In this document: positions 11,634 to 14,915 of the stretch, piece by piece
Position numbering within the stretch: position 1 is the first letter of the stretch
Layout: the number at the start of each line of letters is the position of its first letter
Notes under the pieces: model-generated
What the model was told of the DNA's origin: nothing
Seen by the model: only the letters and a program-made list of their open reading frames with translations
Databases searched by the model: none
NCBI GenBank assembly: GCA_963522175.1
Contig: CAUQXC010000002.1
Span: 253,134 to 317,133 of the forward strand
Length of the DNA: 64,000 nt
Direction of reading: 5' to 3'
DNA from: an uncultured Lachnospiraceae bacterium
GTDB lineage: Bacteria; Bacillota; Clostridia; Lachnospirales; Lachnospiraceae
Made by a program: the position numbers and the translations under genes

Positions 11634-11825
11634 AAGTTTTATTTTGCTACAAAAATATAACTTTCCTCCTATTTTTTATAAATACGTATCAGTTATTTAT
11701 ACTGTATTCTGAAAGAAAAGTAAAATAGTTAATATCTATCAAAGACTTATGTTATAGATTAAATCTATGGCTTTGCTTGAGATTGGATGTTTTAATTTTA
11801 TCCCTCTCTTCCATTCCCACCCTGA

Positions 11826-12578
11826 CTAATACTCCTCTACCCTTTCAATTATACTTATCTCTTCTCCGTTTTTCGTATAGCCGCTAATTGTAATACTCGC
11901 ATAAATTTTAGCCCCATTTTCTTCCATCCTACTTAGATAATCGTTTAACTCAATATCCAATTTATCTCCATCAGCTATATCAAAATATGAATTTAAATTT
12001 TTATCGCTTAATTCATAATCTATACTTATCTCACCGGTGTTCTCCGAATAACTTGTACTCGTAGCTTTATATCCTTTCAAGCTTTCCTCTCTTAAATCCA
12101 TGTATTGAAATACAAATTTCATATTTTTCATCCAATCTTCCACTTTTCTTCCGTCTACAGCATATATTCCCTTCTCCTCACTATAGGCGACCTCAAATGT
12201 TTCTACAAGTTTATCACTTTCACCCTCAATATATTTGATTTTTTCATATACGCCTCTTATTTCCTTCTTATTTGCATCAATTTTAAGTTCCAACTCATGA
12301 GAAATAATATCTCCCTCTTTCACATCAGTTTTCCAATGATACATCTCTCCTCCGTTCGGCAGTTTATCAAATATGTCACTTACCTTTTCGGTCGGATATA
12401 TTTTTCCCATATTACTGAAATGGGGTTCTATAACCGCTCTTCTTCGTGTTATGTAAAAGTATATACCAAGCGCAAGTATAAAAAACACTGTTACAGTTAC
12501 TATTATTGCACAGTAAATACAAACTATTTTCAGTAGTAGGCTTACAAGCGGGGGTAATTTTATTTTTTTTATTTTCAC
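11826..12578 (-). CDS. Membrane-anchored protein of unknown function, paralogue 1 of 3
   Basis: 250 aa with one N-terminal TM helix. It shares the blocks IYPTE, LPNGGE and EVAYSEEKGIYAVDGRKVEDWMKNMKFVFQY with 13039-13776 and 13902-14651. Confidence 0.7.
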   Translation of the reverse strand: MKIKKIKLPPLVSLLLKIVCIYCAIIVTVTVFFILALGIYFYITRRRAVIEPHFSNMGKIYPTEKVSDIFDKLPNGGEMYHWKTDVKEGDIISHELELKIDANKKEIRGVYEKIKYIEGESDKLVETFEVAYSEEKGIYAVDGRKVEDWMKNMKFVFQYMDLREESLKGYKATSTSYSENTGEISIDYELSDKNLNSYFDIADGDKLDIELNDYLSRMEENGAKIYASITISGYTKNGEEISIIERVEEY

Positions 12579-12660
12579 TTCTATAATCTCCTCGTATAAT
12601 ATATTTTAGATGCATGAATGCATATGAAAAACCAAATAAATATTTGTTCAATAGGCTTGG

Positions 12661-13038
12661 TTAAACCCAAGATATAATTCCCACTATTGGGGCTATATTC
12701 CCTCCCAAAGAGTGTCCTGTAAGTATAATTTCCTCTCCATATTTTTTTGATATTTTTTCATAAAAGCCGCAAGCACTTTTTTTTCTTTTTGTCTCCGGTA
12801 AATATTTTCATATCTGAAGCTATGTCTTTCATAAGTTCATTAAAGCCGCCACCCGGATTTGTCCCTGCAAAGCCCATAATTATTTTATCGGACTTCTTAT
12901 CCTTATTATCCGGTACCACCCCTACAGGCTTGAAAGCATTTTTAATAAGGTCTTCAATACCTTTATATTTATAAGGGTGTATATACATATCTTCTATTTC
13001 ATAAGCAATTCTTGATACATATAATGTTTCTACCTTTT
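12661..13038 (-). pseudogene. Lipase class 3 / DUF2974-like alpha/beta hydrolase remnant (frameshifted, truncated at both ends)
   Basis: The ORF-track fragment 12758-12988 reads ...KIIMGFAGTNPGGG...DMKIFTGDKKKKK and stops. A 1-nt shift at the A-run continues it as SACGFYEKISKKYGEEIILTGHSLGGNIAPIVGIISWV*. That gives the lipase_3 pattern (xFxGT, then the GHSLGG nucleophile elbow) but no downstream Asp/His. The upstream in-frame extension (KKVETLYVSRIAYEIED) has no start codon. Confidence 0.6.
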
Positions 13039-13776
13039 TTAGTCTTCCTTTATATTTTCTTTTATACTCTCGGAGATTGAAACGTGATTATTCTCATCTC
13101 CGGCACTGACATTAACCTGACCATAGAATTTCATACTCCCATTAATATCAAGACGTCTGCTCAACTCCAAAAATATATCCTTGTCCTCATCTACATTCAT
13201 ATATTTAGCCAGCTCGGAATTTTTTATAGTGTACACTATTCTTGTTCTTCTGAAATTAGTACTATCGTAATATTGTAAGCGTTTCTTGTATCCTCTCAAA
13301 TCTTTCTTCCCCAAGCTTAAATATAAGAATAAAAACTTCATATTCTTAACTCTATCATCCAAATCGCTTCCATCTGTCGCATATATGCCTTTTTCGTCAC
13401 TGTATGCCACATCCACTTCTTTCTCGATTTTAAATCTGTCTATCTCCTTACTGAATCTTTCTTTTACAAGTTTTCCTTCCATTATTCTTCTGTAAGGATC
13501 AACTTTAAAATTCAATTCATAAATAATATCTTCGTCATCTTCTTTTATATGTTCAGTATGATGCAATGTCCCTCCATCCGGCATTTTGTCATACAATTCT
13601 TCGACACTATTTGTGGGATACATTTTCCCGCTGTTTCTAAACTGCCACTCCACATTCATTCTCGTATTTTGGAAAAAGTACGTTACGATAAATAATACTG
13701 TCAGCCCTATAACCCCGATTATAGAATACACTATCAACAACAATAGCCTTTTTATTATCTTTAAAATCAAATCCAT
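13039..13776 (-). CDS. Membrane-anchored protein of unknown function, paralogue 2 of 3
   Basis: 245 aa with an N-terminal TM helix. Blocks MYPTN, MPDGGT and DVAYSDEKGIYATDGSDLDDRVKNMKFLFLY align with the other two copies. Confidence 0.7.
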   Translation of the reverse strand: MDLILKIIKRLLLLIVYSIIGVIGLTVLFIVTYFFQNTRMNVEWQFRNSGKMYPTNSVEELYDKMPDGGTLHHTEHIKEDDEDIIYELNFKVDPYRRIMEGKLVKERFSKEIDRFKIEKEVDVAYSDEKGIYATDGSDLDDRVKNMKFLFLYLSLGKKDLRGYKKRLQYYDSTNFRRTRIVYTIKNSELAKYMNVDEDKDIFLELSRRLDINGSMKFYGQVNVSAGDENNHVSISESIKENIKED

Positions 13777-13901
13777 TTGTATTTAATCTCCTCTCATACT
13801 CAAATTTCTTTTTACAAAAACGAAGTTTTCCTCATATCTCGATAAATAATCCAAGTACATGCGCCGTTTTTCTCATGATTTTACTACTCCTTCACAATTT
13901 C

Positions 13902-14651
13902 CTAATACTTGGTCACTATTTCAAACAGTGTTACAGAATTTTTGCTTTCACGGTCTTTATCAGCACTTGAACTGCTATACACCACAACTTCTCCAAGTGA
14001 TTTGCTGTTGTAATCACCTTTATGCAGTTTTATAGTTAAATTTCTTTCTTTCGGCATATCCATATATTCTCTCAACTTTTCATTTTCTATTTGATATTCC
14101 AATCTTTTATACATTCCATCTTCAGCATAAGCCCTATTTATCTCTTTAAATTTTTTCAGTTTTTCTTTCCGTAAATCAAGTAATTGGAAAATAAATTTCA
14201 TATCCTTCATCCACTCCTCTACCTCCCTTCCGTCCACGGCATACATCCCTTTTTCCTCACTATAAGCCACTTCAAACTCTTCTACTACTTCGGCCTCTCC
14301 ATATTTATCACCTCTTATTTTTTTATACGTTCCGCTTATGTACTTTTTAGATGAATCTACATTTAAAGAAAATTGATAACTATATAAATATTCTCCATCT
14401 TCTTTATCTACACCTGTATATATTTCTCCTCCGTTCGGCATTTTTTCAAATAATTCTTCGAGTGTTTCCGTCGGATATATTGTCCCTATACTTCTAAATT
14501 TAGACTCTATATACCAACGACTTCCGGTAATGTAATAATACGATACAACAGCCGCCACCAACAGTGCGGGTATAGCTACCACTGTTATTATCACTCCCAA
14601 TAATAAACGCAAAAAAAAGTTCAGTTTCTTATTGTTTTTTGCTTTTTCCAT
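13902..14651 (-). CDS. Membrane-anchored protein of unknown function, paralogue 3 of 3
   Basis: 249 aa with an N-terminal TM helix. Blocks IYPTE, MPNGGE and EVAYSEEKGMYAVDGREVEEWMKDMKFIFQL are present. Confidence 0.7.
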   Translation of the reverse strand: MEKAKNNKKLNFFLRLLLGVIITVVAIPALLVAAVVSYYYITGSRWYIESKFRSIGTIYPTETLEELFEKMPNGGEIYTGVDKEDGEYLYSYQFSLNVDSSKKYISGTYKKIRGDKYGEAEVVEEFEVAYSEEKGMYAVDGREVEEWMKDMKFIFQLLDLRKEKLKKFKEINRAYAEDGMYKRLEYQIENEKLREYMDMPKERNLTIKLHKGDYNSKSLGEVVVYSSSSADKDRESKNSVTLFEIVTKY

Positions 14652-14915
14652 ATTCTTTATTCTCCTGTTTAATTATTTCACCCTATTTTATTATTTTACC
14701 TTATTTTTACACTTTTTTATATTAAATATATTTACAATCATCTTTTAAGTAATATAGCCCGCTTTATGATACCAAAAAAGGAGATAGTGCCTAAAATAAA
14801 TGCGACCAAAATACTAATCGGTATTATCTTTAGACATAATCTCCTTCCAAATGCAAACAGGCTCAATCATTGACCCGGGTTCTTACTCAGCTTACTTTAG
14901 AGCGAGCAGAAATTA

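Follow-up and report, generated by a model that had tools for sequence, protein, structure and literature searches.

Organization of the locus

The window analyzed here, meaning the whole stretch of 64,000 nt, comes from contig CAUQXC010000002.1 of an uncultured Lachnospiraceae from the mouth or gut (GCA_963522175.1; positions 253,134-317,133, forward strand). Its genome is a 2.68-Mb assembly that is 99.88% complete, and the organism lies near Lachnoanaerobaculum, a Lachnospiraceae (NagA-like protein 81% identical). Between a NagA-like gene and a rhodanese gene, the window carries an island of three tandem paralogues, til1, til2 and til3, together with the remains of two lipase genes. We compare this island with TslA and TilA, a recently described toxin-immunity pair that has been studied in staphylococci, enterococci and Listeria. 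TilA is a DUF576 lipoprotein of Staphylococcus aureus whose gene lies directly upstream of tslA, in the order tilA-tslA-tlaA1-tlaA2, and the copy number and sequence of DUF576 genes vary among strains (Garrett et al. 2023, Nat Commun, PMC10730906). TilA forms a 1:1 complex with the lipase domain of type VII-secreted TslA (Kd 14 nM), blocks its phospholipase A activity and protects cells; TslA, for its part, is toxic solely when outside the cell (PMC10730906). The features of the array are listed here in their order along the minus strand; L numbers denote loci or contigs of relatives, and L008-L011 are sister strains.

til3, 13902..14651, minus strand: 249 amino acids (aa), TilA-like (predicted DUF576/Csa1 fold), N-terminal signal-anchor transmembrane (TM) helix, no Cys or lipobox

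til2, 13039..13776, minus strand: 245 aa, TilA-like, TM-anchored, directly upstream of lipase remnant A as in the tilA-then-tslA order

Remnant A of a putative TslA-type lipase gene, about 12661..13063, minus strand: recognized from translations, Pfam, blastx and an indel relative to L008

til1, 11826..12578, minus strand: 250 aa, TilA-like, TM-anchored, two Cys inside the helix without lipobox context

Relic of the lipase B 5' end (~30 nt) and deletion junction, 11797..11825, minus strand: recognized from blastn of the window against L008 and from the junction sequences

The three til proteins align end to end with pairwise identities of 32-37% and 42 invariant columns. Blocks in which these columns fall include IYPTE/MYPTN, LPNGG/MPDGG, VAYS[ED]EKG[IM]YA[VT]DG and MKF[VLI]F. 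Even the weakest pair has a BLASTP E value of 5e-36, so the paralogy is far beyond chance. At each N-terminus, a short basic segment precedes roughly 30 hydrophobic residues, and the AlphaFold2 (AF2) model of til1 (pLDDT 93.9) has a helix at residues 10-44 that leads into a beta-rich domain. A first-pass annotation of this DNA had described three paralogues of about 250 aa that share these blocks and an N-terminal TM helix and are clearly diverged elsewhere, and the alignment and the model bear this description out.

The N-terminal helix appears to be a signal anchor. Neither til2 nor til3 has an N-terminal Cys, and the two Cys of til1 occur in the contexts KIVC and CIYC within the helix of about 35 residues. 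A basic N-terminus and a single helix predict an N-in orientation with the following domain outside the cell, which is the topology of the lipoprotein relatives described below.

Fold and family of the til proteins

The til proteins were compared with TilA through DUF576 paralogues in the PDB, Pfam models and synteny. A profile built from til1, til2 and til3 (A1) matches the S. aureus DUF576 lipoproteins 4big (E 1.2e-3) and 4eg9 (E 0.029) over nearly their full length, with both signature motifs of the family aligned. These motifs, YP-x-x-x-[LV]-E-[DE]-L-[FY]-[DE]-K and [NM]-[FM]-K-F-[FV]-x-Q-Y, are shared with the Csa1/Lpl tandem lipoproteins (PF04507; 4BIG, 4BIH, 4EG9, 4EGD), as are the fold seen in Foldseek and profile comparisons and the arrangement in tandem arrays. 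An exhaustive hidden Markov model (HMM) search of 1.84 billion representatives found 79 relatives, nearly all of them lipoproteins of 200-240 aa with an L-x-G-C lipobox. The nearest named ones carry the NCBI name 'Csa1 family protein [Streptococcus sp. DD11]'. A profile of this wider family (A2, 55 aligned members) matches 4bih, 4eg9 and 4big at E values of 5e-26 to 3e-23, and 10 of the 55 members pass PF04507.

Structure comparison gives the same assignment. When the til1 model was compared with the PDB by Foldseek, the top 8 matches were all DUF576 crystal structures (4eg9, 4egd, 4big, 4bih), with E values of 3e-10 to 8e-6 and target-normalized TM scores of 0.56-0.65. The model thus has the three-dimensional fold of DUF576. 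This was the structural check that the first-pass annotation had proposed, and its view that no known domain is recognizable in the proteins is wrong, since profile, Pfam and structure searches all find a remote DUF576 domain. On the strength of these profiles and this model, we place the til proteins in the DUF576/Csa1 superfamily, with a predicted signal-anchor helix in place of the lipobox. They differ from Csa1/Lpl in that they are not lipoproteins, lack the Gly/Asp-rich insertion after the first motif, and occur outside Staphylococcus and outside the genomic islands of Lpl clusters.

With default filters, hmmscan against Pfam and NCBIfam returned only noise for the three til proteins. Under genome-search scoring, til1 passes the gathering cut-off of PF04507 (27.6 bits; cut-off 27), and it is the HMMER filters that hide this remote match. 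In the Pfam-A scan, default filters gave no PF04507 match for til1 even at E<=1, and precomputed tables do list it.

In a maximum-likelihood tree, the three til proteins form one clade (support 100/93) whose sisters are lipoproteins, which implies that the change of anchor and the triplication occurred within the window lineage. A search of the window's own genome with A1 recovered the three til genes as its sole copies.

Lipase remnants and the gene neighborhoods of relatives

Remnant A appears to derive from a TslA-like lipase gene. Its broken frames were searched as separate pieces, exactly as they stand in the DNA. The first frame reads ...IIMGFAGTNPGGGFNELMKDIASDMKIFTGDKKKKK, and the second, after a frameshift in an A-run near 12775-12791, reads ACGFYEKISKKYGEEIILTGHSLGGNIAPIVGIISWV up to a stop codon; the piece in the second frame reads ACGFYEKISKKYGEEIILTGHSLGGN...WV and stop. 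This second piece has Lipase_3 and Mbeg1-like matches in Pfam (E 3e-4), and blastx against TslA-like lipases aligns remnant A with residues 5-147 of P0092, a full-length relative. The frame continues into the 3' end of til2 and has no start codon. Relative to the sister strains, it has also lost 83 bp between TAAG microhomologies, a segment that encodes the conserved LEYIDSFYD..TGTSGVAF block. The surviving sequence ends just past the GHSLGG nucleophile elbow; the catalytic residues Asp and His are missing, as is the entire C-terminal helical (secretion) domain. Of the features that define a TslA-type toxin, the window retains the part through GHSLGG only, and the helical C-terminus, Tla partners and linkage to type VII secretion machinery (T7SS) are absent from it. 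The first-pass annotation was right that a frameshifted lipase_3-like remnant is present, but its extent of 12661-13038 was slightly too short, the remnant spanning approximately 12661-13063.

A 107-bp part of remnant A around GHSLGG (12672-12778) matches the corresponding part of L008's second lipase gene (13946-14052) at 97% identity, and the remaining sequence of the two copies is far more diverged. This pattern hints that the toxin copies have recombined or undergone gene conversion with each other.

The second lipase gene, lipase B, is interrupted by an insertion in the sister strains, which leaves a 5' piece of 92 aa and a 3' piece of 268 aa. With the latter as query, full-length relatives of 399-422 aa were found. 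One of them, a 422-aa protein from Granulicatella adiacens, carries the annotation alpha/beta hydrolase; the closest is P0092 (46% identity). In the P0092 model, residues ~50-232 form an alpha/beta-hydrolase domain similar to class-3 lipases, feruloyl esterases and phospholipase A1, and three long helices occupy 235-398. As modeled, this layout is the 'reverse' TslA architecture. Among the close relatives listed in a homologue search with a TslA-like lipase profile (A3), there was no named S. aureus TslA, and a PDB sequence search with the lipase returned generic class-3 esterases alone. The likeness of the remnant to S. aureus TslA is drawn from synteny and the architecture of its relatives.

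The gene order around P0092 is a 214-aa lipoprotein, the lipase, two genes for small helical proteins (132 aa and 123 aa), WXG100, EsaA, two small genes, YukC/EssB, and a large gene that is cut off where the locus ends and by position is presumably EssC. The 214-aa lipoprotein matches A1 (HHalign 96.6%, E 6e-10). A full-length lipase beside a til homologue, which the first-pass annotation had proposed to look for in related genomes, is therefore present here next to T7SS core genes. The same adjacency recurs elsewhere. Homologues of til in L012 and L013/L014 have a lipase immediately downstream (HHalign 97.9%), L096 (Streptococcus sp. DD11) has three tandem Csa1-like genes and then a 387-aa lipase, and L097:59-8675 (Gemella-like) has six tandem TilA-like genes (227-247 aa) and fragments and then a lipase of the same family. 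L109 represents one of the til clade's two sister lipoproteins, and its gene overlaps the start of a TslA-like lipase (HHalign 99.9%). A lipase therefore lies directly downstream of the til homologue in 5 of 6 informative related loci (L012, L013, L096, L097, L109), a count that leaves out one contig that ends too early to tell. A lack of lipase or toxin genes beside the homologues had been named in advance as grounds for rejecting an immunity function, and the opposite was found. The island itself has this arrangement too, in that til2 abuts remnant A and the til1 of the sister strains abuts the 5' piece of lipase B.

The exception is L098, where an Mbeg1-like gene is three genes away among DUF1310 genes. 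In this locus (L098:810-3005), a Csa1-like lipoprotein gene is followed by three DUF1310 genes arranged around a gene for a 287-aa Mbeg1-like hydrolase, and this may be another lipase-immunity arrangement with DUF1310 as the repeated partner. The L097 lipase is unusually long at 804 aa, with about 400 extra residues.

Orphan status and origin of the island

The genome contains neither a toxin cognate to the til proteins nor a secretion apparatus for one. Searches of the assembly found no WXG100, YukC/EssB or LXG gene and no TslA-like lipase match besides remnant A. One further candidate was considered, the Mbeg1-like (DUF2974) gene at C3:181319-181987, and it was rejected as the cognate lipase on the grounds that it has a GHSKGG motif, no til paralogue as neighbor and no TslA-like match. 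It is the sole intact Mbeg1-like gene of the genome (G000; 364 aa, L004 1264-2358) and has an ordinary metabolic context.

Several observations bear on the origin of the island. A related Lachnospiraceae metagenome-assembled genome (L017) has the same flanking synteny (HK-RR-NagA / rhodanese-TM-VTT-CCG) with nothing between NagA and rhodanese, and the GC content of the island (0.30-0.34) is below that of its flanks (0.38-0.47). Among 200 genera sampled from Lachnospiraceae, there was no convincing til relative, the one marginal match covering 63 residues at E 7e-4; EssB occurs in 7 of the 200 and a full TslA-like lipase in none. The A1 search for related loci likewise returned no relative in the genomes of other species, and the nearest relatives of the til proteins belong to Streptococcus, Gemella and Granulicatella. 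With an empty site in a relative, a low GC content, no convincing til relative in the sampled genera and Bacilli as the nearest relatives, these sequence comparisons point to Bacilli as the source of a horizontal acquisition. The til island showed no accompanying mobile element or integrase.

Strain haplotypes

Metagenome contigs of the same species have flanks that are 97% identical in DNA and carry the til3-til2-remnant-til1 array with the second lipase downstream of til1. In all, the species has three haplotypes, related to one another by deletions, and none of them has an intact lipase.

Short haplotype, window and L110: til3-til2-remnant-til1 followed by ~30 nt from the beginning of lipase B, which directly adjoin the region upstream of rhodanese

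Long haplotype, L008-L011: lipase B split by ~4.7 kb with PDC-S22-like gene fragments, GajA and GajB

Third haplotype, L112/L113: a deletion from one Shine-Dalgarno-like AGGAG sequence to another removes til1 and the 5' piece of lipase B

At the lipase B junction of the window, the sister strains carry 6.0 kb. The insertion in their lipase B contains a Gabija system (L008:9130-13642; GajA 737 aa, E 1e-234; GajB 578 aa, E 5e-206), which two PDC-S22-like gene fragments precede in L008 and which is absent from the window (11797-11813). The dead toxin gene has come to serve an anti-phage system as a landing site, and the gap between NagA and rhodanese is a hotspot of variation, with three or more haplotypes.

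Proposed function of the til proteins

We consider it probable that the locus is an acquired orphan immunity array against TslA-type lipases. The til proteins would be extracytoplasmic proteins of DUF576/Csa1 fold, tethered to the outside of the membrane through their N-terminal signal-anchor helix. When a TslA-type phospholipase A toxin arrives, each may, in the manner of S. aureus TilA, engage its lipase domain in a 1:1 complex and obstruct either the active site or membrane access before phospholipids are hydrolyzed. The attacking toxins would be secreted by the type VIIb system of neighboring Bacillota, and three diverged copies could cover a wider range of toxin variants. With a lipase wreck alongside and a genome that lacks the secretion machine, the til proteins most likely shield the cell from the toxins of its neighbors. 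The locus probably descends from one or two til-tsl cassettes gained by horizontal transfer, in which the toxin genes decayed or were deleted while the immunity genes were kept, duplicated and diversified, leaving an orphan immunity island. Kinship to DUF576/TilA, adjacency to lipases and a genome without a T7SS thus support the first-pass annotation's proposal of membrane-anchored immunity proteins against a secreted lipase of T7SS type in an orphan-island layout. The analysis shows the family membership and fold of the proteins, their predicted topology, the synteny of relatives, the decay of the toxin genes, the lack of T7SS markers, and an inserted island that is polymorphic among strains; that the til genes are expressed, that their products bind and inhibit such toxins, and which toxins they neutralize is inferred.

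A more specific history can be offered tentatively, with somewhat less than even confidence. A Lachnospiraceae without a T7SS would have taken a til-tsl cassette from oral Bacilli (Streptococcus/Gemella/Granulicatella-like), dropped the weapon, re-anchored til with a TM helix, and triplicated and diversified it, thereby gaining cross-class protection against several TslA-type lipases.

Several points weigh against an immunity function. All three til proteins lack the lipobox that is the hallmark of the staphylococcal DUF576 proteins, default-filter hmmscan does not report PF04507 for til1, til2 or til3, and identity to the solved staphylococcal DUF576 structures is only 16-21%. That TslA producers live in the same habitat is itself deduced from the taxonomy of the relatives. 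The remaining points concern the state of the genes and the precedent for their function, and each is best weighed beside the alternative that it favors.

The first alternative, which we regard as unlikely, is that the island is a dead relic, a til-tsl cassette in decay whose open frames are intact because too little time has passed and which confers no benefit. Both lipase genes are destroyed or deleted, til1 is missing from L112 and L113, and the til3 of L008-L011 has a 5' frameshift, located in two homopolymers, that is either real or an assembly error. Promoter and terminator scans of the island gave results at chance level, leaving no convincing signals. In the one sequence pair compared, window against L008, dN/dS is 0.55 for til1, 0.22 for til2 and 0.52 for til3, far above the 0.01-0.08 of the flanking genes, and dN is 10-50 times that of the flanking genes, so relaxed constraint on the til genes is possible. 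However, dN/dS is below 1 for all three genes, and the replacements are clustered in a few segments (for example, til3 residues 70-105 and 198-233 and til1 residues 83-102) rather than evenly spread. The til frames have also stayed open (all three in the window, and no fewer than two in any haplotype observed), while the neighboring lipase has lost its start, suffered a deletion, shifted frame and been truncated. In addition, 42 positions are invariant in proteins with only 32-37% identity, which indicates long selection after duplication. These data fit fast, possibly diversifying evolution under continued constraint, a reading that, for a single pair, is also compatible with partly relaxed selection.

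Somewhat less likely still is a different role at the cell surface, either in interaction with the host or matrix, as for Lpl/Csa, or in lipid binding and transport, as for LprG/LolA-like proteins. TilA is the sole DUF576 protein proven to be an immunity protein, and other staphylococcal members were first described as antigens or as factors for host-cell invasion or immune stimulation (cited in PMC10730906). The til1 model also has weaker Foldseek matches to LprG (E 6e-4), but this similarity is weak (TM 0.38-0.46). Immune stimulation by Lpl proteins stems largely from their lipid moiety through lipoprotein-TLR2 signaling, and the til proteins lack the moiety to which it is credited. Neither version of a surface role explains the strict adjacency to TslA-like lipases in unrelated genera or the lipase remnants within the island itself. 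A third alternative, raised by the first-pass annotation itself, is that these membrane proteins have a role in sporulation, germination or other housekeeping in Lachnospiraceae; it draws on nothing further than the membrane anchor and has a negligible chance of being correct, because the near absence of relatives from the 200 genera, the empty site in a close relative, the lack of sporulation-family matches in Pfam and NCBIfam, and the DUF576 fold effectively refute it.

Relation to known immunity systems

Among the closest known systems is tilA-tslA-tlaA1-tlaA2 of S. aureus. The til proteins share the DUF576 fold and, by prediction, the extracytoplasmic site, and their genes lie directly upstream of a lipase gene whose intact relatives encode an N-terminal class-3-like domain and a C-terminal helical domain. 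Both systems have tandem, non-identical copies whose number varies among strains, and in both the toxin genes are frequently missing or broken while the immunity genes persist. In loci of this kind, toxin genes are often absent or frameshifted and immunity genes are almost always kept, according to the TilA laboratory (bioRxiv 10.64898/2026.06.22.733114). In contrast to TilA, the til proteins have a signal-anchor TM helix instead of a lipobox and lipid anchor. Their host is a Lachnospiraceae, of the class Clostridia, that has no T7SS at all, and their locus has no tla partner genes and retains the toxin only as a fragment. Among the papers searched, those that mention DUF576 describe no case that is clostridial, TM-anchored or from a genome without a T7SS.

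The predicted anchor has a parallel in TilM, a DUF1433 membrane protein that, as the immunity partner of Tsl2/TslM, neutralizes a second lipase family (10.64898/2026.06.22.733114). Like the til proteins, TilM has an N-terminal TM signal anchor and a globular domain outside the cell, and it occurs in strings of non-identical copies at toxin loci that sometimes lack the toxin (10.64898/2026.06.22.733114). The two differ in that DUF1433 is unrelated to DUF576 and that the lipase family of TilM has a single WXG100-like partner. The esaG and tsaI strings of firmicutes are also similar, since they are tandem divergent paralogues of immunity genes that occur without cognate toxin or apparatus and form strain haplotypes by recombination or deletion between repeats (PMC9484751). 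What sets the til island apart from orphan immunity arrays of other contact-dependent systems is the toxin class, a TslA-type lipase, and the fold of the immunity protein.

The til locus would extend TilA-type immunity to Clostridia and Lachnospiraceae and to a genome that cannot secrete such toxins. If so, T7SS lipase toxins exert selection across distant members of mouth and gut communities. The locus also indicates that the DUF576 immunity domain works, or at any rate is maintained, where a signal anchor takes the place of the lipid anchor. About 75 clusters of uncharacterized lipoproteins can be annotated as TilA-like. Bacteroidales carry acquired interbacterial defense islands against type VI secretion (T6SS), and if the cross-class history proposed above is true, then the til island is a Gram-positive, T7SS-directed counterpart of these. 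The three haplotypes, one with Gabija inside the dead toxin gene, show how toxin-immunity loci become general hotspots of variation and defense.

Spacers and upstream border

Two further features complete the island.

Spacer between til3 and til2, 13777..13901, minus strand: contains a 14-codon open reading frame (ORF; 13876-13832) behind GAAGGAG; sequence inspection, blastx negative

Upstream border of the island from the NagA-like gene to til3, 14652..14915, minus strand: includes a 42-aa hydrophobic ORF; empty site in L017

The first-pass annotation held that the spacers of the array contain decayed genes. This is correct for the spacer between til2 and til1, where the lipase remnant lies, but is unsupported for the one between til3 and til2. 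The short ORF with a strong Shine-Dalgarno sequence that was placed at about 13830-13874 does exist; it reads MRKTAHVLGLFIEI and stop at 13876-13832 with GAAGGAG upstream. By blastx, however, it has no similarity to lipase or Tla partner genes, so it is unsupported as a gene relic. Likewise, a blastx search of the spacers and flanks for remnants of Tla partners or further lipase pieces found nothing beyond remnant A. The til3-til2 spacer is probably ordinary intergenic DNA. In the upstream border, the 42-aa hydrophobic ORF (window 14738-14866, minus strand) encodes MSLFAFGRRLCLKIIPISILVAFILGTISFFGIIKRAILLKR and differs by one substitution from its counterpart in the sister strains (L008 5629-5757).

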